From Raja brachyura (lineage: Eukaryota), in contig OY740787.1 in assembly GCA_963514005.1 (NCBI GenBank), positions 71,114,001 through 71,178,000 on the forward strand: DNA of 64,000 bases. Reading direction: 5' to 3'. Below, in pieces: positions 1,180 to 45,810 of the stretch. The first letter of the stretch is position 1. Each line of letters opens with the position of its first letter. The notes beneath the pieces were generated by a model that did no database searches, was not told where the DNA came from, and saw only the letters and a list, made by a program, of their open reading frames with translations. The position numbers were made by a program, and so were the translations under genes.

Positions 1180-1323
1180 TGTATAAAACTGTCCATATCT
1201 CTAGTTTCCCTTTCCCCTGACTCTCATTCTGAAGAAGGGTCTCGACCCGAAACGTCACCTATTCCTTTTCTCCAGAGATGTTGCCTGACCCGCTGAGTTA
1301 CTCCAGCATTTTGTGACTATCTT
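1180..1323 (+). mobile_element. Penelope-like element 3' end carrying a hammerhead-like core
   Basis: ctgaagaagggtctcgacccgaaacgtcacc...ctgagttactccagcattttgtg, the same terminus as the RT-bearing element ending at 19303. Confidence 0.75.
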
Positions 1324-1404
1324 AGGTTTACCAGAATTATGTTTGGATTCGGGGGTTTCAGCTGCAAGGATAGGTTTTGTGTGTAACTTTGGTAAATCAC
1401 CTAA

Positions 1405-1581
1405 AGTTATGTATTCAAGAGAGATTTGGATATAGCTCTTAGGGGTAATGGAATCAAGTGATATGGAGAGAAAGCAGGAATGGGGTACTGATTCTGGATG
1501 ATCAGCCATGATCATATGGAATACCAGTGCTTGCTCGAAGAGCCGGATGGCCTACTCCTACACCTATTTTCTATGTTTCTA
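1405..1581 (+). mobile_element. CR1 LINE 3' tail
   Basis: gatcagccatgatcat...ggcctactcct...tttctatgtttcta, matching the CR1 3' UTRs elsewhere in the window. Confidence 0.8.
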
Positions 1582-1845
1582 ACTCAGAAGTCTGGACTGC
1601 TTCAGCCAGCTTCCTATTGATAAATCAAATCATTTTTTACCATTAAAGAAAATATTCATATCTTATTGTATGGATCCATCGGAATCAAAAATGAACAATT
1701 AGATGATAAATGTACCATTCGAAAATTTATAAGAATCAGCTCCTTATGTCAAGGTTCTCATTATTCCTTAATTAAATTTTTTTGCAATATGACTGGAAAA
1801 AGATGGTGGACCAATTATCACATATAACTGAGAATTTTTACACAC

Positions 1846-2127
1846 CTTTAACTGTGACTGCAATGTCACAAGATTCACTGCCAGCTTCATTTTCGGCTTT
1901 ACAGGAATAATTCCCTGTGTCATCCAAGCTTACATCAACAATCTCTAAGAATGCCACAGAATCAACAAATGACATTGTATATTTTTCATTGAAACTAATT
2001 TCATGTTGATTCTTGAACCAAGTGACTTTAATTTCAGGTGTGCCAGTTATTTTACACTCAAAACTTGCTGTATCTCCTTTTTTAAATATTGCTGTTGATT
2101 CTAACTTCATAATAAAATATGGAGGTT
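1846..2127 (-). CDS. ttn: Titin middle Ig exon, super-repeat 5 position A (282 bp)
   Basis: EPPYFIMKLESTAIFKKGDT; GT-AG phase 1. Confidence 0.93.
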
Positions 2128-2362
2128 CTGTAGAAAACAACGTTGTAAATGTAACTATACATACAAGTGTCCAAGATGAATCCATTCAACATAAAGAAAA
2201 CCACGTGGACAAAGAACAAAAGAAAACACGAACGAAAGAACAAGAGAAAGCAAAAAAAACCCCATTAAAATAACAAAGAGAAAATTATATAACAAATCAA
2301 AAAGTTCATGCCCACATGTAAACATTCCACAATGGTGAAACAAGCACAGATAAATTGCACAC

Positions 2363-2641
2363 CTTTGATAAAGAGTCTTGCTGCACAAGTGACACTGCCA
2401 ACTCTGTTGCTGATTTCACAAATATAGTCACCCGAATCTGAAACTTTGGCTGAAAACAACTCAAGTAAACTGGTTGAGCCTTCACTTAAAATGAAACAAT
2501 CAGCTCCAGACATCAGTTCCCTGCCATCCTTCAGCCATTTTATAATTATTGGTGCTGTTCCTTTCACAACACTTCTAAACCGCACCGTGGAACCTGGTAA
2601 GCTTTCCTGAGACATAGGTTTTTCTATAAAACCTGGAGGCT
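2363..2641 (-). CDS. ttn: Titin middle Ig exon, super-repeat 4 position F (279 bp)
   Basis: EPPGFIEKPMSQESLPGS; GT-AG phase 1. Confidence 0.93.
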
Positions 2642-2855
2642 CTGAAAGTCAGGTAAAAAAAAAAACACCATTGCAATTTTATGAAGAAAAGTTAAAGGTC
2701 AGATCTAAAATTAATTAAAATAAACTGCAAGCAAGTTTAAATGCTTTGCATGTTAATTTTTGTTGCTATGTTAGCAAGCAAACATCAAAAAATGTAAAAC
2801 CGTATAAATATGAATAAGATATAAACTGAGCTGAAAGTAAATTAAACTTTCAAAC

Positions 2856-3143
2856 CTGTTATATTTAAGAAACCACTGCTTTCATCACTTCCAACTGAAT
2901 TAGTTGCTTTGCAAATATAAGTTCCACGATCTGAAATCTCTAGTTCATCAAATTCCAAAGTTGTTGTGTTATCTTGATATAATAGTTTGTATTTTTCACT
3001 AGATGTTATTAATTTGAAATCCTTATACCAAGAAAAGACCATTGGAAGAGAACCAGAAACTTTGCAGTCCATTTGCACAGACGATCCTAAAACAATGTCC
3101 ATTTTCCGTAATTTTCGTGTGAACACTGGAGGAATTAGTTGAT
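2856..3143 (-). CDS. ttn: Titin middle Ig exon, super-repeat 4 position E (288 bp)
   Basis: DQLIPPVFTRKLRKMD; GT-AG phase 1. Confidence 0.93.
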
Positions 3144-25886: not shown

Positions 25887-26165
25887 CAGTCACAATCAAT
25901 TTAGCTGTGCTGCTTACACTGCCAATCTGGTTTGATGCTCTGCAAGTATATTCTCCACAGTCAATTAACTGAGGTTTCAAAAGTTTCAAGATGGAAATAT
26001 ATTTCTGGTTCATGATGTTGTATTTCTCACTGTCACGAAGTTCAGCTCTGGCTCGGAACCATTGGAATCTCACATCAGGAATAGGATTAACCTCACATTC
26101 AAACTGAGTGGCGTGTGCAACTATCACCTCCTGTGATTCAATCTTCCTTTTGAAAACTGGAGGCA
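25887..26165 (-). CDS. ttn: Titin Ig exon (human exon 50 equivalent), 279 bp
   Basis: ctgcag|TGCCT, ACTG|gtaagt; VPPVFKRKIESQEV...DCGEYTCRASNQIGSVS. Confidence 0.95.
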
Positions 26166-27064: not shown

Positions 27065-30000
27065 CTCTTATTACAACTGTGAGGTGTGCAGAAGTTGTTG
27101 ATTTTCCTGTTTCATTCAATGCCTCGCAGATATACTCTCCTTGATGTTCCTCTTTTTGTACTTTGCTGATTATAAGTGAGTATGTGTCAAAATCCTGAAA
27201 ACATTTGAACTCATTTTTTGAGGAAATTTTCTCTCCATTGATATACCAATTTACAGCTTTAACTTTCTGTATGACTGTGCTAAATATCACTTGGTTATCT
27301 TCATCTGCAGTGGCATCAGTAAGCCCCTTAATAATTATTGGATTGTCTTTAGTAGCCTTTATTAGTATTTCAGTCTGCATTTTCATTTTAGAAACATGAG
27401 TAGCTGAATTGTCCTCCGTTTTCTCCTCTATTTTAAGAATATTTGTCGGGGGTTCTCTAAGCACAGACATGGAAGGGGTAATATCGATGCACACAGTTTC
27501 TAACCTATCAAATGACTTTGGAATTGTACCTAGCTGTTCAGCTATGAAAGCCTGCTGCTGCTCACGAATGATGGAACAAAAAGCTGCTGTCAGTTCCTTT
27601 TGTAAGTCAGCTTTCTTGGGGTAATCCGCGTCACAATTCAGAGTTATATCTATTGGAGGATTTGCATTGGTAATTTGATATGTATGTAAAGTGTATTTAG
27701 GTTCAATTTGAACTTTTAATTCCTTAATTTTTATTTCTTCTATGGAGCTAAATGTAATGGAGGAAATTGCATGATGCTTACTTGCTAAAGCAGATTTAAG
27801 TGCTTCCTTAAACTGTGTACCTATACCTAAAGTGATGGTTTGGGGAATTGTAATCTTAAATGCCAGTTCCTTATGGAGTGCTCCATCTTCTTGTATTACA
27901 TGTGATTGTAGTGTTTGATCCGGCTGCTTCTTCAACTTCAGCATTGTTTGTTCTGATCCCGATGAATGTTCCTCTTCAATAATCTGTTTTTCTTGAAGTG
28001 GAAATCTTACTGCCTGTTCTTCTTGGATTCTTACTGCAAAATCTTCTTCTGCAGCCTCGAGCATATTGGTACTTTTCATAGACGTAGTATTTTCTTGAAC
28101 CTGCACAGAAGCTAAAGGTAATTTTGGTTCATACATATCCCCACAGGTTTCTACACTAATGCCTTTGAAAATAGCAACAGAACCATCTTCAACTATCATG
28201 CTGTCTGTTGTAGTGCTGAACTGTTTGATACTGTCATCAGACTTAGTTATCAATGCATGCTGTTCTTTCTCTTCAATTGTAAAAATGTTCTCTTTGATTT
28301 TTTGTACAGGTTGAGTCGCAGATGGGAGATACCTTTGAGGAAGAGGATGAGTTTTGGCTTCAGAATGTAAACTTTCAATTTTCATTTCAAGGGATTTAGA
28401 TTGTTCGTCCAACAGTTCTGCGTTTTCTTCTACAACCACAGCATTGCTGTATGCCGTCTCAAATTTACCTGCTGCAATATGAGCAGCTGGTTTCACTTGG
28501 GGTAGCATACCTTCTTTATGAAAAATACACAGACTTTTTATGTGATGAGAATGTAAAGTGGATACATGTTCTTTTGTTGGTTTAATTTTTATGCTGTTCT
28601 TTACATCAGATAACTGGGTTGTGTATTCATAAGGTACCAGGTGCTGCTCTTCTGCTAGTAATGAATGTAGACAAGTTGGACTCTTTCTCAGATCAGCTTT
28701 ATCTTCTATGGGTACTTCAAAAGTAAAAGGACATTCTTTGGGTAGAGTATCTTGTTCCTTGACAATCTGTAAATGCAATGATTCCTTTTCTTCTGGTTTT
28801 GATGTCATTGAGATTGCACAATCTAATCCAATTAGTATTTTGGTGTATTCACTTCGAAGTGGTTGTTTCTCTTCTGCATTTAAAGCAGTTTTCACAAGTT
28901 TATCTTTCATTACTAAAGCTTGTTGTGATCCAGCTTTTTGTACCTTCAAGATAGACTCCTTTAGGGTTGACTTGTGGCTTTCAGTAACAGATGCCAAGAA
29001 TGGCTTTGGTAATTCTTTTAATGACTTTGATTCCTTTCCAGCATCTATTGGTTGTATCTCTTCTGTAATTTCATCCCTTATTTTTTTCTTTTCCATTGAT
29101 ACAGTTGTACAAACCTCCATTTTGTTTTCTTTTTGGATTTTGCCTTGATGCCATGTGGGAACTTCAAATATAAACAAAGGTTCTTTAAGGGGTTCTTGAA
29201 GTCCTTCAACTTTGGAACTGTGTACAGTGTACCTTGGCTCTGTTTTTGCCATTTCTACAACATTAAGAGCTGTAGATTTGGGGCGACAAATTACATCTTT
29301 CTCTGGCATACCTATTTCCACTGTTACTGGTTTAAAAGTTGCAATAGGCAATCCTTTAATATTAAAGATTGCTTCCTTTGGAATTTCAGTCTTTTCCTCA
29401 ACTGTGGGTACATAGTTTTTTGATTGTACTTCTGTGCTTGGTACTTTGAATACTGGCAGGCCTTTGATCGGTTCATAGTGTTGCTCAATAAAGCCCAGAC
29501 TCTCCTGTGTTGCTTGAGAATGCATTATCATCTGTTTCATTCCTGAAATAGTTGTTTCTGTTGCAGAGATTTTTTCCTTATTCAAAATGGCCATCTGTTC
29601 ACTGTGGACAAACTGTTTTTCTTCAGAGGATATTGTACACGCCAATTGATCCGGCTCCTGTAATTCAGCCTGAGTATCACCAGGTGATTTTGCGGTGAAT
29701 AAACACAACTCAACGGCTTGATCACGAATGGTCCTTTCGTAAAGCTTCTGAACCATTTCTTGCCTTGAATGCTCATCAGCAAAAGTATCGCTCATCACAA
29801 TTAGTTCTGCAGTGCAAGTTGCTTCTCCAAATGTGTTAAATGCTTTGCAGGAATACAAGCCACTATCCTTCTTCTGTATATTATGAATAGTTAATGAACC
29901 AGAACCATTGGAGTTGTAACTCAGGTTGTGTTGCACACCTGGAAACATCTGGTACTTTCCCTTATACCATAATACCTCTGGCATTGGTTCTCCTGTCACT

Positions 30001-30652
30001 ACATACTCAAATTTACCAAGCATCCCTTTTAGACACTGCAAAGATTTAAATTCTTTTAAAAACTGTGGTGCCTCACCCTTGGATACATATTGGTATTCTG
30101 CTTGTTGTATTAACACAACTTCTTTCGATAGGGGCTCTTTGTTTATCTTTTTTTCAGGCAGTTTTGCAACTGGAGGCTTTGCAGCTGATTTCCTAAACCC
30201 ACCCATACCTTCCTTTGGTTTGATTTTCAGATGTGCACTACATGAAGTTTTTCCAAGCACATTACTAGCTGTACAGGTATATTCTCCCTCATCTGTAAAT
30301 TTGGTGTAACCTATAATTAGACTATATTCCGCCTTATCATAAACAAACTTGTGATTTGATGAAGGTATCAATTTGTTACCATTATAAAACCACTGAATAG
30401 TGGGTTCTGGGAATCCACTGGTAGTGACAGAGAATTTAGCTACATCTTCCACAACTACCTCCATACTAGAAATATGTTTCATGAATACTGGCACAGATTT
30501 TAAAGGCTCAGCATCAGTTTTTATGTCCAAGATTTTTGATGAAACTGGAGTTTCAGGCCTGAGTTCAAATGTTTTGTCAGACACATGAAGTTCACTTGTG
30601 TAGAAATCTTCCCTCTTATCTTCAGCAGCGATGATTACAGCGCTAGAATATT
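27065..30652 (-). CDS. ttn: Titin cardiac N2B exon (I24, I25, N2Bus, I26; human exon 49 equivalent), 3588 bp
   Basis: atacag|AATAT acceptor, AGAG|gttgga donor; EYSSAVII start, PVFMKHIS Ig, PQFLKEFK Ig, AVRIQEEQAVRFPL, HQGEYICEALNETGK. Confidence 0.95.
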
Positions 30653-33520
30653 CTGTATAAGAAATAAGATGGTTAAATTTAGAAAGCAGGTCCGCTGCAA
30701 GTATTGCTCAATACTGGAATGAAACAAAAAGTACCAGAATTATTAATTTGTCATTTTTGTGCCAAACCCCTTCTGCTTCCAAATGTTACATTTCTATAAC
30801 AGTCTCCTTTAAATATTTATCATTAATCTAGGTATACAAGTGTGTGATTGTATGAAGAATTTGTTCAGACAATTTAGGAAGTTTATTTTGCCTATCTTAA
30901 TAGCACACTAGAGGTTTTAAGTGAATTTTGCTTTAATATACCATTTATTCAAATTCATATATTCAAAATGTGTGTCCTCTGAGTATTTATTTGTGAATTA
31001 AAATATTTAATGGATGATCTATATTTCCATATCGTAATCAAAGTTAATGAAAGAGGAACTGTAGGTTGAGATACGATCGTAGTGGCTGACAACCTGCAAA
31101 TCCAGACTCACACTCCAAACTAATCATGACAACATGTGTTATTATTATGCAAAAATATACTGCATGCTACAAATTTTCAAAAGATAGGAAGTAATTTGTA
31201 ATATAAGCTTTATTCCATTACTGAAATACATATGTTCAATCAAATTTGATTGTTAGGTCACATTAAGAGAAATCAAGAGATCATATATTCCTACTTTTAC
31301 CTTGGTAACAGCAAGATTAATACAATAATTTTCACTATCATCAAAACGGCCAAATGCTATTGATACATTTCTGATTTAACATCTCTTAACAAAGCAGCAA
31401 TGAGATGTTAACAATTCAGTGGCTCCAAGCTTTTGTGTAAAAAAAACCCAACAGTTCTAGGTTGCTCTCCAAACAGGAAGTATGTGGGTATTAGCCTAGA
31501 GTGCGATTACATCAACCGTGTTGGCCTCAAATTGTGTACCAATACATAAACATCAGAACACTTAGCTGACTCATTTGAGAGGCAGCTGCTACCACCCTGG
31601 AACCACAACTCAGTATAAGTTGCTGTCTTAAGGAGAGATGGGATAATCAAAAGAAAATATATCTCATATACCAAACCAGCTGTATATTTACATGACAGCA
31701 GACCAGAAGTTTGTGTACATATTAGTATAACCAGCAAATAAGAAACATATTTAACAGAAACCCGTAGAAGGAATGAATAATTGCAGCATTAAATGTTTAT
31801 TTTCACTAAAATACAAACCTTAATTTTTATACTTATCATGCTTTATACCATGTCAAGTGTAGCAGACAAAACAGGGAAACAATGCATGCTTTCATACAAC
31901 TAGGTTGTCATACTGAGATCAAAAGAAACATGTATTAATATATTCATGCTTATATCATGAAAAGTATATTTTTCTATTTTGTAATTTCAATAAATTTTCC
32001 AAGAACCTACAGAATTCAAACCATTAAAATTTGTTCTTTTCAAATATCAAACAATTTAAGCAGTTTTGACGAAAGTTGGCTTCATTTTAAAATCAACAAT
32101 TTAGGAAATAAATATTAAAATGATAAGCAAAGCTATGATTCACAAATATATAGATGCCATTTGATTGTTTGCAAACTCGTGAAAGAGTGCATTTCTGTTT
32201 TTACTCATAGATTACTCTAAAATCATCTGTAGTATGCCATTGGTGCAATCTCTGGACCAATCCAATGTAAAATTTGACTGCCTGACTAAACCCTCTAGGA
32301 CCCCGTAAACTCCATCATGTCATCAAGTGGACTCTCTCCAACACCATATATTGTAAAACACATAAATACAGCTGCAAAAGTACTCTTAAACTTTACATCC
32401 TTACATTTCTGATGCTGAACAACCCAAAACTTTGCTAACCTCCAAAAACTAGCCTGAAGCTAACAATTACAATAAAGTAACAAAACCATTGAATTAACCA
32501 AATTTTAAACATGTAATGTATGACATAATGTGTTTCAATTAACTGCACCACAGAATGACACAATGCGGTTTTTCCCAGGATTCCATAACAACAAAAGATA
32601 TCAGAAAGACAAATTAAAATAGCAGTCACTTTCTCCTGAGTAGGATAGGAAAGTGAAGGATAGCGAAATGCACTGTGTACTTTCTAACTGTACAGATCTG
32701 GAAATAGATTACTTTCTATTTTTGATAAGAAATATGATGAAAGGTGAAAAGAGACGAGAAAATAATAGATAAAAGTTGATTATTTATAATGTGAATTCAG
32801 GCTTACAGAGATATCATTTAAAAGCCGCGGGAAATACGCTTGATAGGCAACTAAAATATTTATTTTTAAGTCATGGATTCCCTGCAAGAACTGTAACATT
32901 TTTAAGATTCTTCTATGCCATTTTTTTGGTTTATCCTCTCTACTCCATCACATTGTATTTAAAGAGAACATGCTCACATACCTTAGTTATGAGGACAATT
33001 TTCCAACATAATATCATTCTGTGGCTGTCAGTGGCAATACAAGATAATGTACAGGTTTACATGACATTTTAGTTTAGATATTAGACCAGATAAAATAAAT
33101 AGGATTAACCATCCTGTTAAAACAGTGACAGAAAATATCATATCTAATTGTTAAATCCATAAGTAATCTGAATTTTAAGATTTTAAATTGATATACTTTC
33201 CAGATCATAACTATGTTCAAACCAATCAAAATAAAAATTAGGAAGTGGAATTAATCAGTTTGATCAGCCATTCAACGAGATCAAACTTCCAGTGATACTA
33301 AAATCTTCTGATAACAGAAACAATCAATATTACATGAAAAATCAACAACTGAAAAAGCGCAATCGTCAACTGTACATAAATGATTTCAAACTTCTATTAA
33401 TGTCTGCGTGTCTTTCAATATTCACTTTTTAAAGACCTGGTTCCAATTTTAAGATTATGCCCCTCATCCTCGACTAGCCATAGTGTCCATCAACCTCATC
33501 AGTTGGCCTTGCTATTTTAA

Positions 33521-33917
33521 GGTCATAAAGTCATGTGATAGGAGTAGAATTAGGCCATTCGGCCCATCAAGTCTACTCCGCCATTCAATCATGGCTGATC
33601 TATCTTTCCCGCATTCTCCTGCCTTCTTCCCACAACCGCTGACACCTGTATTAATCAAGAATCTATCTATCTCTGTCTTTAAAGTATCCACTGACTTGGC
33701 ATCCACAGCCTTTTGTGGCAAAGAATTCCACAGATTCACCACCCTCTGACTCAAGAAATGTCTCCTCTCCTTCCGAAAAGAACATCCTTTAATTCTGAGG
33801 CTATGGCCTCTAGTCCTGGACTCTCCAACTAGTGGAAACATCCTCTCCACATCCACTCTATCCAAGCCTTTCACTATTATATATATTTCAATGAGGTCCC
33901 CCCTCATTCTTCTAAAC
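33521..33917 (-). mobile_element. CR1 LINE 3' fragment, same sense as titin
   Basis: FRRMRGDLIE...TRGHSLRI...SQRVVNLWNSLPQ and 3' UTR on the minus strand. Confidence 0.9.
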
Positions 33918-34923
33918 ATTTTTAAATACGCCACGTGTTAAACAAGAAATAGAGAACCATGAACTAGATGGAACTGACTTTCAGTAATTTGGGCGAATGG
34001 CTTCATATTTTACTCACAACAATAAAGCTATACTGTTTCATTTGTTTTTTGTGAATATTTTATCAAATAGGACACTTAAAATTATTGTACCGTTAAATTA
34101 AAAACTTAAGAAAACTCCTCAGCCCGATGTATTTTTTCTTGAACTTTCCAGCTAAGTGTCCATAAGTTGGTCATTTTCCACAAAAAGGTATAATAGTCCT
34201 CAAGTAAGAATAAACTTTCATATATTAATGCACACCTTCGGTTACTCTAAATTTTAACAAAAATATTCACATAGCGTGAATGGAAATAGTAATAATGTCA
34301 ATATTTTAACTAAACTTTCCTTTGAAAACAGCACGTGAATTAAATATTTTAGGAAAGCCCTCGTCTGATGCTGTGGGATGTTCTGTTGAATGCAAACATA
34401 TCTTGAAATTAATATCTACTCCTCTTTAAGTTGGGAATAATGGAACTCAATATTAAGTTCCTAAACACACTTTAAGGAGAAACAATGTCATGGGCCAAAT
34501 GATAAGGAATTTGGATTAATAGAAATGTTATACATTGATACCGTATGGTTTCAAAAAATTATTGTACATATAAGATGAAACCTTGGCTGCAGTTTATGTA
34601 AAAATGTTTTGTGATTCAACAGAACTGATCTGTCACCAGATGTAACATTATCACTGTTTAAAGAGTTCGATCATTAATGGATTAGTTGTTTGTGAAAAAT
34701 CTCTCGTTATCAATATTTTTCCATAAACTAACCTCAAGCATAGCCATACATTTTCATGTTCTTAATCCAAAACATTCACTATTTTTACACTAGGTATTTT
34801 TCAGCTATTATTTCAAACTTTCAAATAAAAGCTTTCCTACCGATTCATCACTCCAGAGTACACCAAGGGTTTTTTAAACATTTTTTCAGCCATATCAAAT
34901 ATAATTCTTAACATTAAGATCAA

Positions 34924-34929
34924 TTTAAT
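34924..34929 (-). terminator. Possible variant poly(A) signal ATTAAA for the Novex-3 isoform
   Basis: ATTAAA on the minus strand about 100 nt after the Novex-3 stop. I saw no canonical AATAAA in the next ~1 kb. AT-rich context makes this weak. Confidence 0.25.
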
Positions 34930-35031
34930 TTCCATGCTTGAAAGTAGCATATCCCTAAACATGCCATTTATCAAAAATATCTATAAGCATCAAATTAAAT
35001 TCTAAATATATAAAGGACACTCTGAAAGATT

Positions 35032-38000
35032 TTATGCACAAAATACTTTTAGAACAGCAACTGTGACTGCATTCCCAGCTTTGCTAACAGCTTTACACTT
35101 GTAGATTCCAGCATCACTTTCCATAACATTGACAATATTCAAGTAATGTTGCCCAGAATCTTTCTCCCCAATGCTATAGTTGGTACCTTCAAGTATTCTC
35201 TCATTCCGATACCAAATTACAGTAGGTTTTGGAGTACCAGCCACACAGCATTGAAAATATGCTACGTTCCCCACAGTTGTGTTGCAATCAAGAAGAGAAA
35301 TCACAAACTTGGGTGGAATCTCTGTCACTTGAAATTCAAATGAACATGTTTCAGAAGCCTCTGCTTTAAACTGAACAATTTCATCTTTGGCAGGTTCAGC
35401 AAATACATCAAAGTTGATATTCACACATTCCTCACCTCCTTCCTCACTGGCTTTTTCTGTTGCAGCAACAAGTTTCACTGATTTCTGGGAATCATCTCTA
35501 CATTGTTCAAATTCAAACTCAACCTCGAATTCTGAACTCTGATTGTCATCCAGCAAAGAATCACCAACAACAACATCTAATTCCTGGAAACTTTCTTGAG
35601 CACCACCCAGTGATAAAGCAGCTACAGCTTTTCCAGTTGCCACGTATGAGCTTGTTACTGCAAGATAACCCCTACATGTTGCTTCTCCAACACTATTCAC
35701 TGATTTGCAACTGTATATGCCATTGTCCGAAGGACAGACATTGGTTATTTTAAGACTATGATTATAATTATCTTTTCTAATGTATTTAATGCCATCTACT
35801 GTTATATGTAAATCATCTTTGAACCACATTATTTCTGGAATAGGAAAGCCTGTCACAGAGCATTCAAATACTGCATCTGTGTTTTCTGGAATCTCAAGAT
35901 CAGAAATATGGCAAATAAATCTTGGGGGCATTTCAGTGACTTCTAAATCAATTTTCACATCTTCATTTTGTTTTGATGTTAAGTCTATAGTTTGCTCATC
36001 AGAAACCATCATAGGAAGAACATCTAGTGAGATGACCATGTTTTTATTGTCAGGAGAAAATTCAGGAATTGTAATAATTTTTATCAGTTTTTCAAATTCC
36101 TTCACATCATGTTCATCAAGCTCAACTTCCAGAAGAATTTCTTGAGGCGAAGGAGATCTTGATGTTTGTTCTTGCTGCACATCAAACTCTATGACGTGTT
36201 GATGAGTCACAAGTGGTGGCAATGCAACTAAGCTTGCATCTTGTGCTAAAACATCTACTTGAGCAATACTTTTGGCTTCACCTACAATGTTTACAGCATT
36301 GCAGACATACTCTCCTTCATCTTCTCTTTGCACGCTATGAATCACTAATATACACAAATTTCCTTCCCTTTCTAGTCTTATTTTGTGATTTGGCTCTAAT
36401 AATGATTTTCTTCTATACCACTTAACATCTGGAATTGGGCAACCTATTACTTCAGTTATAAATGTAAGTGAACCCCCTTCGTGAATCTTTTTTCGAGCAA
36501 GGGGTTTAATAAATGCAGGAGGCATTTCATTTCCTTTTGCTTCAGCTTCCTGTGGTGGAGTTGTAAATACTTCTGATCTTTGCTCTTCAGCTGTTGGACT
36601 TGAACATTCAATAGGTGTCGTTTCAATACCCTCATCTACTGGTGATCTAAAATATTCTGGTGGTGTATAAAATCTCTCTAGTAAAGTACAAGAAGCATTA
36701 AGTGAAGGCAATCTTTCTTCAGGAGTTACATAGCCAGGTGATTGAGGTGGAGTATGAAATGACTCTGCAGATACAGCAGATTTGAAATTTTCAGAAGCCA
36801 ATGGCGGTGTATAAAATCTTTCATTTTCTGCTACTTCATCACTAACTGTACTACTAATTTCAAATGACATTTCAGATTCAGGGGAAAGGGACCGTGTCCA
36901 CTCTTCATTTTGATTGTAGTAGTCATAAACAGCAGAAAATGTTACATCTTCAACTTCCATTGAAGTTATTCCAGACTCATCATGCTGAAATGCATCATTA
37001 TTTTCCCAATCATGAACTGGTGCCTGCTCCTGCCTTGCAGTAAGGAGGTATTGTGCAATGGAAACATTCTCACTTGCCTCATCCTTCTTAGAACTTGTTT
37101 CTACCGAATCTACACTTACATCACAATTGTTTTTTTGAAACACTGAGTTACTTAACTCCACCTCTTCCTTATTTTTTTCTGTTTCTCCTTTCTTACTTTC
37201 AACTACTTGCTTAGTATTGTCTTCTGACAATAAACTATCATCACGTATTTCTGCTAAAAATACACACCTATCACTTAATTCTGCTTCTTCATCCATCATC
37301 TGAACTTCAGATAGCTTCTGCTTTTTATCAAGAAACCGTAAATATTGGCTAATAGAATACATTTCCTCTATTGTGTTATCTGGCATTTTTTGCCCTGTCA
37401 CACCCGTCTCTCTGGTCATTGTTTCAATATATTTATGTGGCAATTCATCAGCATATGAAGTCAGTGATTCTGTGATTATTTTATTATTTTTCTGTCTTAA
37501 AGGTGAACTGTTACTTAAAAATTCATTATCAAAAGAGCTCAATGAATCTAAAGCAACTTCACTATGCTCGTCCTTTAAAGACAAATCTTTACTTGAAAAT
37601 CCAGCTGCAGTGGGTGGAACAAAAGCACCATCTTCAGAAATAACATGAATTGGGGGGTTTTCTACACTACATGGAAGAGAAGTATTTCCTGTTTGACATT
37701 GCTGTTCAATATCTTCACCATGGTCCATTTTATTTAGATTATGTAAAAAACAGCTAACAGGTGATTGTGTTTCTTCATCAGAAGACTCATTATTCTTCAG
37801 ATGGTAAATGAAACTGTGCACTACAGGTTCTATTATGAGATTAGATGTACTCTGTGCTTCCCCAACTTTATTTTTTGCAATACATTTATACTTTCCTGCA
37901 TCCGATTCTGAAATACCATTAATATATAATCTAAAAGCTCCCCCACTCCCTTCAAATTGGTACTTGCTCATATCATAAGGTAAAGCTCTGTCATTTTGAA

Positions 38001-38465
38001 TCCATGTAACAAAAGGTTTGGGCTCACCAGAAATTAGACATTCAAACATCACTGTTTCTCCTTCGGTACAACAAATCTTATCTAACTCTTTTACAATACG
38101 TGGAGGTTCACAAATTACATCAAAAGAAAATTTAAATTTATGTTTTGTTGATTGGGAAGAGGATTCGTCAGATGAATCCATGGAAGTAAACTCGTCCATC
38201 TGAAATAACTCTCTCCTTTCTTCATCGTGCTCTGGTGTTGGAGTTGGAGCAGTTATTTTAATTTCAACAGGAGAAGAAAGGGTAGATAAACTTAATGGAC
38301 GTGGTTTGGGTGCTGCAATACTCGGTATTTGCAGGGTGGATTTTATTACAGGAACTGGTGGAAAGTAAGACTCAACTTCCTTTTCAACCTGGTGGTCTTG
38401 ATCATCTTCCAGTGTTTCTGTCACATGTATATTAAATGTTTTCAAAGGTTCTTCAAGCAGAAGGT
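35032..38465 (-). CDS. ttn: Titin Novex-3, second and terminal exon (four Ig domains, stop TAA)
   Basis: ttttccag|ACCTT acceptor in frame with the previous exon; ITSMEVEDVTF, SPQEILLEVEL, EMPPRF motifs; ends VLKVFCA*. Confidence 0.92.
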
Positions 38466-38566
38466 CTGGAAAATGAAAATAAAATGAAGAATTCAGATTT
38501 TCAATTATCTTCTTACAACATTAAAAAAAAAAGATAATTATAAAACTAAAGTATGATGAATTTTAC

Positions 38567-41500
38567 CTTGTACTGTAAGGACGCAGGATGTTGCTGCAGT
38601 ACCATGTTGGTTGAATATTACACATGCATAAACTCCTTCATGTTCTTGGCATATGCAGTTAATACTCAATGAGGATTTATTTTCTGTGGAGTAAATATCA
38701 TAATCCCTGTTCTGTAGAATTGGATGTTCATCCTTGTACCATGTTACCATAGGTTGTGGGTGTCCATGAAATTGACATTCAAGGACACAGGTGGCTCCTA
38801 GTTTAATTTTAGGAGACGTAATATGGTGAAAAAATACTGGAGGACAATGTTTGTTTAGGTTAATGGAAGGAGTCCCTGCTTTTGAAGATTCATTCACAGC
38901 TTTATATTTATAATGATGGTCTTCTGCTGGAGTCTCTTTTATTAATGAACTGAATAAATCCAAACTGTGTGTTTCTTCTTTTAAGGACGATGTTTGGGTA
39001 TGTGTCATAGTTGGAGAAAGGCATTCAACTTCCCTTTCATGTTGTTTCTGATCAATTTTAGTTGCATTAATCACTGTTGGCTCTCTGAATGCTGATTGAT
39101 CAGATATTATTTGGTCACTTTCTAGTTTCTCTGTTGAATCTTCTTTGTGAGTACTGGCAAATCTATCAAGAGTTTTCATATGGCCTTCCTTAAATTCAAG
39201 GTTCCAAGGAGAATCTCTTCTAAACACCGATGAAACTGAAGTCTCTTTTTTGTAAACTGAAGTCTCTTTTTCCTTTGATAAAGGCGAAGCCTTCATCATC
39301 CATGTGGAATTCAGAACCTTTGCTTCAGATTGTGATTCTTTTTGTCTGATTTCATCTTCATAAATCTCCTCAGCATCCTTTGCTTTTAAGGACTGAAAGT
39401 ACATTTTGTTATTGTTGTCAAGTTTCTCTGGTAAAACCTTCTTTTGTGCTTGGAACAAAATTCCACATTGCTTTATATAATCTGCCTTGTGGTCTTCCGT
39501 AGGTTCAGATGTACTTAAAGAGGTTGGCGCGTCATTTCTATTAGGTGAAAATGGGTGGATTGTGCTATTAATCTGTTTTTTATATTGTGGTTCTTTCTGG
39601 TTCTGATTGATATTAGAAATGTTAATCACCTCAACAGATGTGCAAAGATTTGATGCTTCAAGGACCTCATCAGATTTTTCAGCAACAAGGTTCCTCATTA
39701 CACTAACAATACCACCAGCAAATTGGTCAGGAGGTGTCTTAGTACCTTCATTAACCTCTGATATATGTTGAGATTCTCTCACTTCACCCACAGTTTCCTT
39801 TAGGTATGAACTGACAGTTGGGTAAGCATCTTTGTTCTCTGATACAGAAGGGGCCAAACTTAAAATAGGATCTTTAACCTTTCCTTCACACTGTTCATTT
39901 TGACTGATTTCAGAAACACCAATCACATTCATTTGTTTTACTGCTAACTTGGATTGAACAGCCGTTTGGATTTCATAATTATCTTCAGATTTTGTTACTG
40001 GATTGTCTGATTCCACATAAATAAAATGTCCATAGCTTCTTTCAGATGCTGGTTCATCTTTTTCTTGAACCTTAGATTCCTTTGGAGGTTTCTTTATATC
40101 CACTTGAAGTTGTTTTAGCACTGGGATAAAAAAGGCTGAAGCTTCTCTCTTCTTTGCTGTCAAAGGCGAATGCCTCATGACATGGACAGAATCTATAATC
40201 TCTTCTTCATATTGGCTTTCTTTTTGATTGATTTTGAGCACATCAATCATCTCTGATGGAGAATGATCAGGTTTTCCACAAACTCCTGTTTTTTGGGTTA
40301 GTAAATCATTTTGTTTGCCAGCGTGTCTTATAGATGTTTCATTGTTTACCTTTGTAATTTTATTTGGAATATGTTTTATATCTTCTTGTGTGTTTTTAAT
40401 TAAAGAACTAGTGAAACTTGATATTTCTTTTTTCTCTGGTAATTTAGAGGGTAATATTGTTTGGTAATCATCTTTAATTTTGCCTTCAGATTGCACCACT
40501 TTTTCATTTATGTTAATTACACTTATTGCCTCAATGTCTTTGGATGCCAATTTGGTTTGATCAACAGTTCTGCAATCAGATCCAGGCATCTGTTTTTGAA
40601 AGATATTTCTAGGTAAATTGTCAGAACTAATAACATGGTCTTTTTTTGCTTCACATTTACCCAAGGTTTTGTTTATTTCTACTGCATTAGCATCCAAAGG
40701 TGTGCTGACAGGAACTGAGATGTTTTTTTCTGGTAATAAAGAAGGAATCAACTTTTGTGCGCACTCCCCCATTATGTCTTCCTTTACAATTAAACTAGAT
40801 TCATATTTTTCTGTTGCTCTGAAGTGGTCAGACATTAAATGACTGCTTCTAGTTTTCCTTGCAAGTGAGTTTTGCACACTTTGATCAGAAAATATGTCAT
40901 TATTTTTATTGAACTTGTATTTATTTTGAGGTTCTTTTATCTCTGCCAGAGTTTGCTTTACTGGTGTTAGAAACTCTTTTTCCTTCAATAAAATGTCTGT
41001 ACACTCAACTGTATCTGCAAACTGTTTAACTACCTCAGTTTCTCTGGCTGCTTTAGTTTTTCTGGTTCCAGGTATGAAATAATCCAACGTCTCCCCAGAA
41101 ACATCTGATTGGAAATCTCTCTGCACACTAATAATTTTTCCAAATAGTTGGTCTGAAGGTATATGTAGTTCCTCACAAAGTGCACTCTTTGCTTCTTTTC
41201 TTATGTTATATTCTTTCTGAAAACTACGTTTACCAGATTCCTGTGCTTCCAAACAATATTGATCCTCATGCGACTCTTCCGTCTCTTGAGATGAATCACC
41301 TTTCAATATTTGCTCTTTTAATGACTTTATGACTTCCGTTCTGGAAGATTCTTCAATTATATTTTCTTCACGGACATTTTTAAATTCTGTTTCCAGTGAA
41401 GGAAGCCCTAATATCCGTTCCATCTGTTGTTGTCGTTCAAGAGGTCCTTTCCGAAAGTAATCACCTGGAGACTCTGTCTGCTCGTACACAAAATGACATT

Positions 41501-42460
41501 TACTATCTGCATGGTTCATGCAGTCAAGATCTCCCATACTTCTACTACGCTCTCTGTCTAAATAAATATGACTGTATTTTTGATTGCCTTCAGTTGAAGT
41601 ATCTAGGTCAAATGAAGCTTCAGAGAGTGCAAGAGAAAATCTCTTTTTTCTTTTAGCTTCACGTAAAAGATGCAGTTTAATCTTTATATCTTCATCGATC
41701 AAGCTATCTTCGTTGAGAATCGTCCCACATAATCTAGGTGAATATATTACTGCAGACCTATTAATAGCAGGATCATCATATTTAGTTGCTCTGAATGTAC
41801 TTTCAATATACATTGTACGCATCAGTCTACTTCTAGAATTTGACTTAGTTTGCAAAGCTCCTTGAAACACAAACTTCTTCTCAAAAGGAGACCCAACATG
41901 CCTAAGATCAACTTTAAGTCTTGCGTTCCGATTTTTAACCAAAGTGTCCACGCTTTGGTGAGCCATCACTGATCTTTTCACAAAATTTAGATAGTTTTCA
42001 TTTTGCTCCTCTTTAAGTGCAACAAGTAAAGATGCAGTTGATTCTGCTGATCCTTCTGAGTTTATTGCAAATATCTTGTAGCTCCCGGAATCCTTCTCTT
42101 CTACATTATTGATTTCCAAACTGGAGCTATGAATGTGCATTGTGCTTTCTGTTTTAATAACCTTTCTTGAATCTTTACGAATAGGTCTGTTGTTATGAAA
42201 CCATGCAACGTTTGGTGCTGGGCTGGCAACCATTTTGCATTTAAAAGCAGTTTGCTCTCCTTCCATTACAGATTTGAATTTCAGCTTTTCTGTAAAAGAT
42301 GGCCTGAAATTTTCAGGCCAAGAACCTACAGAAGATGTTCTACTTGCACAACGTTTAGCAGAAACTAGACCTTGATCTAAATAATCTTCAGCATCAGAAA
42401 ATGCATCCCGCAGGTTTTCTCTGTTTTCCAAACGTTCTCTCCCATCATCAAATAATAACT
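38567..42460 (-). CDS. ttn: Titin Novex-3, first exon (Ig, long unique region, Ig), 3894 bp
   Basis: ctacag|AGTTA acceptor, CAAG|gtaaaa donor; RDAFSD, SRTSSVGSWPENFRPSFTEKL, AINSEGSAESTASLLV and CPPVF...FNQHG match Novex-3. Confidence 0.92.
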
Positions 42461-43638
42461 CTGTAGAAAAAAGAATAAATTGAATGGTTTCTTAGAAATC
42501 AGTTAAAATATTAAGAATTAAATGTAATACAAATCTGAAACATGAAATTACAAACTTTATGCATTAGCATTTTTTACAATTACTATAAAAAATTCACTCA
42601 CCATATTTGTTCGAATAAACGCAAGACCATTTTCTGTTTAAAAGTTTCTGAGCAGGAAAAATCGCTCGTTCTTTGTTCTTTCTTCAGACTGTAGCAATTT
42701 CTTGTCAAAAATCATATTAGAATGTGTATTTTGAAAAAAGCATAAAGTGATCTCATGACAGAATAGAATTTTATTTTAAGTAAAATCTGTCTCTGTAATG
42801 AGTTGGGGACATCTAGATTATTACAAATTCTTACCTGACTTGCAAATAGCAGAATAAACGCCTTTCTGCTCCTTTTGGTAGTAGTTAATTTTTTCAGCCA
42901 GTTTGATGAGTATAGATTTTAATTTGAATACAGATAGAGATAAATTCTTTATAATTTATCATACATTGCATGAGAAGGCGTTTATTCGAACTAATACAGG
43001 TGCTAGATTAACAGTGTTATGCAAAAAAAAGCCAACACACATAAATATACTACTATCTGCAAGTCAATGTAAGTACGATTTGATTGATGTCATGTAAATA
43101 TAAGAAAATAAATGCAAAAATGTATAATATTCTAATCAACTATCAGTTAGTAAAATATTGCTTGCAATGTCTTTACGTATGATTCTTAGTGTTAAGCTCA
43201 TCAGAAACTACTAAGAACAGAACTCTGATGAAACTACAGAACCAAGAAAATAAAAGATTAATATGTACGATTTTGGGATTTAAGCACTAAACATTAAGCA
43301 CAGCCCATTCAAGCACTTTTCATTGCATCCTTCATATTCACGTATACCCACATACACCACAAGTTGTATATCAATTTTAATAATAAGCAAATCTGCACTG
43401 AAATTCAGTTTGATTATGAGCAAATAACAATGGGAAGAAGTAAAGTTGCCTGTAAAATAAATAAATGTAAAGGATTTTTATATCAAAATGAGAATTACAA
43501 TTTGACGACAAATTACATTAACACATGCAATTTCATAATGTTTCATAATGTAGCACATTATCGAGATGAGAACAAAGCAGATCGGTCAGAGGATTTTAAA
43601 TGGTATCTCGCAAATTCATCAAATAATAAAAACATTAC

Positions 43639-43689
43639 CTCTCACTTCCATTTCAATCTGTTTTTCAATTTTGTCTTGAATCTTTCTTT
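43639..43689 (-). CDS. ttn: Titin 51-bp linker exon (human exon 47 equivalent); its frame is not in the ORF track
   Basis: tttactgcag|AAAGA acceptor, GAGAG|gtaatg donor; ERKIQDKIEKQIEMEVR, similar to recalled human ILHERIEQEIEMEMK. Confidence 0.9.
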
Positions 43690-44114: not shown

Positions 44115-44630
44115 CTGTCACACTAAGTAGAGTGTTGCACGCTGTTTCTCCTGCAGAATTAACCGCTTTGCATGTATAAGCACCACTGTGACTCTGGCTG
44201 ACTTTCAGTAACTTTAAGCTGCATAGCAACCCATCATGTTTTATGGAACATATTGAAGATTCTTCAACTATGCGTTGGTTGCACAGCCAAAGAACACAAG
44301 GCGATGGTAGACCCTTTACAATGCAAAACAGCAAAACATCTTCTCCATCTTCCACAATGATTTCTGGAGGCAACTTTTCTAAGAATGCTGGTGCAATCGC
44401 TCCAATGTCTATTAATTCATCACTGGGCACCACGTCAGGATAGTAGTCTCGGCTTCTTTGCTTTTCTGTTCTAGTTGGTCGTTTGGTTGAAGTAGGTGGT
44501 GAGCTTGATTGTTTCTTTAGAACTTCTGATTTGCTATTAGATGTGATATGAGGCCTTTGTTCAATTTTAGAGATATCTGAACTGCTATCAGTGGGAATTT
44601 TAGCACCTGTTTGGGGTTTTGTTTCTTCAG
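44115..44630 (-). CDS. ttn: Additional Novex-like titin cassette exon (516 bp): S/T/P/K-rich linker plus one Ig
   Basis: ttcttgcatag|CTGAA acceptor, ACAG|gttggc donor; 172 open codons, symmetric phase 1; AEETKPQTGAKIPTDSS...APAFLEKLPPEIIVEDGED...HSGAYTCKAVNSAGETACNTLLSVT. Confidence 0.8.
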
Positions 44631-44925
44631 CTATGCAAGAATAAAATTAGGATAAATGTTAAGTGATTTAGCAATTTCAGCAAAGTAAATACTTGAAAAA
44701 TATAAAACAGCCCAAAATAATGTGTTCAATAATTCATGCAAACTAGTGTGATGAAATGTCTAGTGTTAAAGTTTGTATAAATCACTAGCTAACATCTTAA
44801 ACAAAACATATTACTGTTAAAAGGTAAATTCAGGATCTTCATAAATAGATACTAAATTAATTTTGGGTAAGAAACAATGAAGTGGATGAATCAGGATGCT
44901 GTCTTTAAATAAAATTATAAACAAC

Positions 44926-45810
44926 CACCTTCGACTGTAAGTACGGCAGTAGTCTTCATTTCTCCACCTTGATTTCTTGCAGTACAGCTATACTGTCCCT
45001 GATCTTCTATGTGCACATTGAGGATGGTGAGAGACATAACATTTCCATTCCGAGATATCTTCAGTCTTCCTGATTCTTCCAATCTTCTGTTTCTGTGACT
45101 CCATATAATCTCTGAAAAAGTTTCTTCATTAAAAGAACAGATGAACTGTGCCATCTGACCAGCTTTGACTCTGAGATCACTAAGTTGAAGTAGAATTGCA
45201 GGGACTTCAAGGCCTGGTTTAGCTGCAGCAATAGTTACTTTTGCTTTACATTTTGCCTCACCATGAGGATTCACAGCTTTGCAGTTATACACTCCGGTGT
45301 CCTCTTCATTCACGTTTTGTATAATTATCTCAGATGAAGTTAAAGCTTCAGCTTCTGTTATAGTTACAATTTTTATTCTTTTAGCTTCCACAACTTCTTG
45401 GTCTTCTTTGTACCATGTTATTTCAGGTTTTGGAATTGCTAGAATTTGACATTTTAGCGAAGTTGTTTCGCCTAACATAACTGTGATGTTTTCCATATCT
45501 TGTAGGAACTTTGGTGCAACTTGAGATCCACTTCTGATTGCTTCAGTCTTGCTAACTTTTTGAGATTCTCCCCAGCTTTCAGAAGAAACTGTCTTGGTGG
45601 ATGAAGTCATGGAGATACTTTCAAACATCTGAACATTGTACGAATGTTCTTGTTGTAAACTGACTTCCTCTGTATAGTTCTTTGTATGCTTTAAGGTCAT
45701 AGGACACTCCATATGCATTTCTGATACTTCAAAAGTCTTTGAAGAGATGGATTCCGCTACAGCTTTTCCAGAAGTTATGCTCTGACTATCTATGCTTTGC
45801 ACTTTGTAAT
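44926..45810 (-). CDS. ttn: Titin Novex-2-like cassette exon: unique sequence plus two Ig domains
   Basis: tcag|ATTAC acceptor (in-frame alternative AG gives start 45801); donor after GAAGGTG at 44926 (alternative 44929). VQSIDSQS, SYNVQMFESIS and the last Ig (LLQLSDLRVKAGQMAQFIC...TTAVLTVEG) resemble recalled human Novex-2. Confidence 0.85.

Follow-up and report, generated by a model that had tools for sequence, protein, structure and literature searches.

Titin Novex-3 is described throughout as one giant exon, and Table 1 of PMC5852582 lists exon 48 as a single exon in human, as the sequence-only reading of this DNA had claimed, and in seven other bony vertebrates, zebrafish included. In this skate, the open frame of Novex-3 is interrupted by a 101-bp stretch with the ends of an intron. 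The locus hence raises the questions of whether this stretch is spliced, whether it acts as a switch between isoforms, and how it came to lie there. The intron is spliced, likely as a matter of routine, and it likely marks a relic exon boundary instead of acting as a switch. The junction it leaves behind is already present in a RefSeq model, filed as a 'titin-like' gene.

Organization of the titin locus

The window, i.e., the whole 64-kb stretch of DNA that was analysed, carries on its minus strand a part of the titin I-band, and among named proteins a RefSeq model of Amblyraja radiata is closest, with 84–99% identity depending on the segment. Read along the minus strand, cassette-like Ig exons (approximately 45.8–44.1 kb) are followed by the orthologue of exon 47, Novex-3, the N2B exon, exon 50, and tandem Ig exons, so that Novex-3 lies between exon 47 and N2B. 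The sizes in this layout match those in Table 1 of PMC5852582. As judged by its sequence, the exon 47 orthologue is expected to be spliced onto Novex-3, N2B, and exon 50. Novex-3 itself consists of a first exon, here '3a', with Ig domain I18, approximately 1050 aa of unique sequence, and Ig domain I19, and of a terminal exon, '3b'. The region of the intron is single-copy in the skate's own genome of 2.7 Gb.

Features of the skate Novex-3 locus in the order of transcription (positions are those of the window)
Feature	Position	Strand	Remarks
Titin exon 47 orthologue	43639..43689	-	51 nt, phase 1-1, AG/GT ends, open frame
Novex-3 first exon '3a'	38567..42460	-	3894 nt, phase 1 to phase 1, 1297 aa, ~147 kDa
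Second Novex-3 Ig (I19 orthologue)	38568..38849	-	ends at the donor
Intron	38466..38566	-	101 bp, GT-AG, phase 1, donor AAG/GTAAAA
In-frame TAA on intron retention	38538..38540	-	tail G-KIHHTLVL-stop, stop 28 nt into the intron
Novex-3 terminal exon '3b', coding part	35032..38465	-	3434 nt including stop, 1144 aa, Ig I20–I23
Likely Novex-3 3' UTR	31192..35031	-	~3.8 kb, repeat fragment near 33520–33920
AATAAA, likely Novex-3 polyadenylation signal	31209..31214	-	motif
N2B exon (exon 49)	27065..30652	-	3588 nt, phase 1-1; proposed cassette partner
Exon 50	25887..26165	-	279-nt Ig exon; proposed cassette partner

Upstream of exon 47, at 44115–45810 of the minus strand, lie two large exons of unique sequence plus Ig, one of them with two Igs, and further upstream follow approximately 6 kb with many LINE-like frames. 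In the intron that follows exon 47 (42461–43638, minus strand), a short element is conserved and carries a donor. A separate 'gene' begins within this element in the RefSeq models of rays, sharks, and chimaera, and an older lamprey model has the same last residues; the same reading is frameshifted in this skate. From its position, orthology of the element with the frame-shifting exon 48' described in PMC5852582 is probable. If so, that exon would go back to the vertebrate stem.

The I18–I19 insert spans approximately 180 aa in birds, 340 in mammals, 1050 here, and 1400–1850 in carpet sharks (models P0005 and P0004), and it is the least conserved part of Novex-3, with 25–57% identity to other cartilaginous fish.

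The intron and its removal

On the minus strand, the upstream exon ends with TACAAG at 38567, the intron runs GTAAAA...ttttcattttccAG, and the next exon begins with ACCTTC at 38465. The intron is short and AT-rich; 14 of the 17 letters just before the acceptor CAG are pyrimidines, and a zone of approximately 40 nt is free of AG. Scored against the U1 consensus 9-mer, the donor matches at six of nine positions, within the span of five to eight matches of 27 other titin donors. With its GT-AG ends, its pyrimidine tract, and its removal in contigs, it features the characteristics of a major (U2-type) spliceosomal intron. Joining 42460–38567 to 38465–35032 yields 2441 aa with six Ig domains and, as the sole stop, the terminal one at 35032–35034. 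The sequence and the contigs described below thus bear out what the sequence-only reading had proposed: a 101-bp phase-1 intron that joins two open reading frames in frame after the second Ig. Its length of 1297 aa for the first frame holds as well, but the 1137 aa given for the second become 1144 when the junction Asp is counted.

Splicing was followed in four of ten runs (X1, X2, X6, and X9), one each from four organisms and all in the form of contigs. All ten runs were guessed to be RNA, no run being recorded as such. A contig of X1 (record 6) matches 37175–38465 with its letters 1–1291 and 38567–40294 with its letters 1292–3019—an exact removal of the intron. A contig of X2 (record 14; 8461 nt) runs unbroken across the whole Novex-3 coding region, with '3a' covered in one piece, and matches 33888–38460 and 38567–42461 with eight letters in between where five are expected. 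This is the same splice with three extra in-frame bases, and the translation Q-D-P-G-L-L is that of the junction of RefSeq XP_032879743.1 (VLTVQ/DPGLLEE). A contig of X9 (record 30) stops exactly at the donor, with an unplaced end, and X6 has no piece at the junction among those listed. The proposed search for the 38567–38465 junction was hence positive in two of the four presumed-RNA runs, from two related organisms, and a third run fits.

X2 was flagged 'probably DNA' by the tool. However, its depth is approximately 79 over Novex-3 versus 1.4–7 over N2B and the intron beyond, and exon 50 appears in X2 and X9 as an exon-sized piece within longer records (5932 nt in X2); the depth contrast and the exon-sized piece are signs of spliced RNA despite the flag. 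X1 has zero cover below 31300. N2B, with a depth of 0 in X1, X6, and X9, lies at background level, so that heart was probably unsampled; no ranking of isoforms rests on depth here. Removal of the intron is likely near-constitutive.

The 3' end of Novex-3

Contigs that run past the stop codon occur in all four runs, their lowest listed pieces ending at 31452, 31192, 31331, and 31204, with depth falling below. Polyadenylation signals follow the AATAAA rule, and a contig of X2 (record 13) ends 17 nt downstream of the AATAAA at 31209–31214, with 21 unplaced letters. Novex-3 therefore likely has its own stop and poly(A) site ahead of N2B, and the terminal exon proper likely extends from 38465 to approximately 31192, with the end of the UTR approximately 540 nt before the N2B acceptor. 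Two further AATAAA motifs at 38347 and 38681 were rejected as poly(A) signals: both lie within coding sequence, and the contigs of X1 and X2 run past them. The 3' UTR (31192–35031), covered in the four runs, is well conserved between organisms, and at 33515–33937 it holds a fragment of a high-copy repeat whose translation we take to resemble the final part of a reverse transcriptase from a CR1/L2-type LINE.

Taken step by step, the spliceosome would choose the acceptor at 42460 after exon 47, the short intron is removed by joining 38567 to 38465, and the transcript would end at the poly(A) site near 31192. The product would be the ordinary six-Ig Novex-3 tail, I18–I23. The intron probably makes no difference to muscle function, as the architecture of the spliced protein is the usual one.

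Origin of the intron

A pattern search on the minus strand identified 37 Ig domains, missing some, including I18. Counted from the second Cys of I19, the donor of the intron follows after 19 codons plus 1 nt. The same register is used by 27 of the 28 other exon-terminal Igs outside Novex-3 that were found by the pattern in the window; the N2B donor lies two codons later. Three internal Igs of Novex-3 have no GT at this register. The last Ig has one (TTT T/GT GCA TAA), which is attributed to chance, as the stop comes two codons later and related proteins end differently. The chance of a random insertion at one of five such sites is approximately 7 in 10,000—a crude estimate (5 sites in 7328) that ignores site preferences. 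The 'new donor' of the sequence-only reading is thus probably a misnomer, and the position of the donor argues for old age.

I19 has only distant relatives in the window, the closest other Ig being 34% identical, and shares 42% identity with the second Novex-3 Ig of bat. Three lamprey models from two species (XP_032812821.1/.2 and XP_078460073.1; P0180, P0256, and P0257) feature I18 and I20–I23 without I19, and this Novex-3-like region of five Igs is filed there as an uncharacterized separate gene. Five-Ig models of other cause exist: P0041 of salmon has no hit for I20, and P0047 of the frog Pelodytes has no last Ig, which could be losses or annotation gaps.

The donor at the standard end of an Ig exon and the identity of I19 as the very Ig missing from the lamprey models together suggest that the intron is a relic. 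Judged from these sequences, I19 probably entered Novex-3 in early jawed vertebrates as an ordinary titin Ig module, followed by its phase-1 intron, which bony vertebrates would then have lost precisely and skates kept. Lamprey may have lost I19, or its models may skip it. From I19 to the next conserved motif, the linker measures approximately 62–75 aa in most gnathostomes, which fits a precise loss of the intron. The residue at the junction is D or E, as demanded by G/AN, in 8 of 9 cartilaginous-fish, 13 of 15 ray-finned-fish, and none of 54 tetrapod proteins among the related sequences, and this pattern is weak evidence for an ancestral intron; the shark model P0002 carries K instead. According to the available text of PMC3964593, intron changes were fewer in chimaera than in any bony vertebrate.

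The intron is shown in skates only, the comparison with sharks, chimaera, and lamprey drawing on predicted proteins. RefSeq XP_032879743.1 (Amblyraja radiata, 'titin-like', 2422 aa) already carries the junction. Two unspliced open reading frames of a related skate, P0074 and P0099, end with the same GKIHHTLVL tail, and their partners P0100 and P0098 restart in the second half. These pairs (P0074/P0100 and P0099/P0098) are 97–98% identical to the Amblyraja model and 93–95% to the window, so that the intron is older than the split of these skates. Among the collected proteins outside the 'shorter' length class, P0074 and P0099 are the only ones that end at I19. The protein searches, with that class excluded, found no shark or chimaera reading frame that ends at I19 or begins after it, which is no evidence of absence. 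Predicted proteins of sharks and chimaera join both halves, and exon structure is not visible from them. The Mobula hypostoma model P0102 contains the second half only—a weak hint of the intron in rays. Three reading frames, from a mammal (P0081), a bird (P0084), and a teleost-like fish (P0254), start with residues that look intronic and extend across all six Igs; provided that they are genomic, they support an unbroken Novex-3 exon in mammal, bird, and fish. A degenerate pattern of the conserved linker motif had no match in metagenome contigs.

The distribution would also fit a recent gain, i.e., insertion of a routinely spliced intron into an ancestrally unbroken exon 48 in skates or rays. 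Direct demonstration is limited to skates, exon 48 is single in eight bony vertebrates (PMC5852582), and the elephant shark paper uses the singular, 'the Novex-III exon', having excluded it from its PCR survey (PMC12241362); its supplement does not mention Novex. However, an insertion would need to have hit the exact canonical end of an Ig exon, the 34% identity of the best other Ig in the window leaves no close paralogue as donor, and a target-site duplication of AG/GT is not visible (exon sides CAAG and ACC). A recent gain is thus unlikely, and the relic exon boundary remains the preferred reading.

Cassette and retention isoforms

The sequence-only reading had further proposed that splicing from 38567 could also reach N2B or exon 50, giving a full-length titin with approximately 1300 aa of Novex-3. 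The insert would comprise 1297 aa, two Igs, and approximately 147 kDa. Its acceptors at 30652 (N2B) and 26165 (exon 50) are AG sites in phase 1, as it had claimed, and both joins are open in frame in silico. This compatibility carries no weight, however, since 27 of 27 scored Ig-exon donors are phase 1 and a match is trivial among titin I-band exons scored throughout as phase 1. The neighbouring Novex-1 and Novex-2 exons act as variably spliced cassettes, according to the available part of PMC5852582, and a tissue that expresses N2B was probably unsampled. In contrast, neither join occurs among the joints listed, and the X1 and X2 contigs run unbroken from the donor to 38465; this check covers the listed joints, 112 others being masked by the repeat at 33.5–33.9 kb, and contigs drop rare forms. 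An abundant second splice partner would be expected to fork the assembly graph and break the contig at the donor. Judged by this behaviour of contig building, the unbroken X1 and X2 contigs make an abundant second partner unlikely. The exon-50 record of X9 has 319 letters joined upstream, for which there is no listed piece within the compared stretch, and hence none in Novex-3; they probably come from exon 47 and beyond. In addition, only 101 nt separate the donor from the near acceptor, which is rich in pyrimidines, whereas the others lie 8–12 kb away, beyond the poly(A) site. Cassette use of '3a' is accordingly improbable.

The same low probability applies to its extension, in which '3a' would be an internal cassette in skate heart (47-3a-N2B or 47-3a-50), and Novex-3 would have started out in two parts, a cassette of the Novex-1/2 type and a terminal exon, which became one obligatory terminal exon in bony vertebrates when one intron was lost. 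A teleost gene prediction, P0087, an unverified model, has I18 followed by N2B-like Igs. Within '3a', a phase-1 donor-like site at 41465 (minus strand; 7 of 9 U1 matches, more than the donor at 38567) is crossed by the X2 contig without sign of use. A direct join of exon 47 to 38465 is open in silico and was unseen.

Regulated retention of the intron would yield a shorter Novex-3 that ends after I19 with GKIHHTLVL, or down-regulation of Novex-3 by decay. Read-through translation reproduces the retention stop at 38538 with its KIHHTLVL tail, as proposed from sequence, and a related skate has the same tail; the intron is short and AT-rich, and retention of titin introns 44–46 is reported for other vertebrates (PMC5852582). 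However, no retaining contig is among those listed in the four runs, conservation of the tail is uninformative at 93% overall identity, the intron has no AATAAA, and P0074 and P0099 begin with intron-derived residues and hence look genomic rather than like mature RNA. A retention isoform is even less probable than cassette use.

That the stretch is no intron at all, and an assembly error or genomic insertion breaks Novex-3 while the relatives' contigs are DNA without the insert, is scarcely credible: run types were guessed, X2 bears its flag, and no DNA run of the two junction-crossing organisms was compared, but canonical GT-AG ends lie at an Ig boundary, independent unspliced reading frames from another skate stop at the same tail, and the missing cover of X1 below 31300 and the exon-sized exon 50 of X2 are as in spliced RNA. 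The preferred reading thus stays that of an intron that is routinely removed.

Comparison with known systems

In the literature covered, with most subscription papers outside its scope, neither a split Novex-3 exon nor a Novex-3 of five Igs in lamprey was found reported, and human and mouse splicing papers, in their available parts, deal with exon 48 solely as an alternative 3' exon. In sharks, birds, amphibians, and some mammals, databases give the Novex-3 region as a gene of its own under a wrong name, so that an annotation correction follows. If the relic reading is true, the intron marks a step in the assembly of Novex-3, from a five-Ig form as in lamprey, via the addition of an Ig module in jawed vertebrates, to the erasure of the last seam in bony vertebrates; the intron is also a usable character for intron loss among gnathostomes. 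Novex-3 is reported to make up 20–25% of cardiac titin protein (PMC13649281).

Exon 48 of human and mouse occupies the same site as skate Novex-3, between exon 47 and N2B (available text of PMC13649281; Table 1 of PMC5852582). In mammals it codes for six Igs, I18–I23 (PMC13649281, same text), and the skate Igs I18–I23 match the domains of the same rank in bat Novex-3 best, in the same order and with 42–65% identity. As in the skate, exon 48 has its own stop and likely its own poly(A) site. Novex-3 is typically spliced to exon 47 and yields a protein of 650–700 kDa. The coding size is 7328 nt in the skate versus 6077–8039 nt listed for exon 48, and exon 47 has 51 nt as in zebrafish; the distance from exon 47 to the Novex-3 acceptor is 1178 nt, in keeping with the 1021–1105 nt listed for intron 47 (all Table 1 of PMC5852582). 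Exon 48 differs in being one exon, while skate Novex-3 consists of two with the terminal one starting after I19, and the I18–I19 insert of approximately 1050 aa compares with approximately 340 aa in bat.

The Amblyraja model XP_032879743.1 features the same halves and the same junction as the window, with one extra junction residue. It is annotated as a separate gene from an internal Met and not as titin Novex-3, and its intron is deduced from the unspliced reading frames of the same cluster. The Novex-3-like models of lamprey contain orthologues of I18, I20–I23, and the linker motif before I20, but no I19.

Ordinary titin I-band Ig exons (phase 1-1) share with the skate intron the donor at Cys plus 19 codons plus 1 nt, and the acceptor side ag/AC resembles their ag/AACC or ag/AGCC starts. 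Unlike them, '3a' is 3.9 kb long, contains two Igs, and precedes a terminal exon. The Novex-1 and Novex-2 exons (45 and 46) and exon 48' likewise combine unique sequence with an Ig, are phase 1-1, and lie in the same region as '3a'. Their inclusion in full-length titin was shown by RT-PCR (PMC5852582, available part), whereas no such junction was seen for '3a'.
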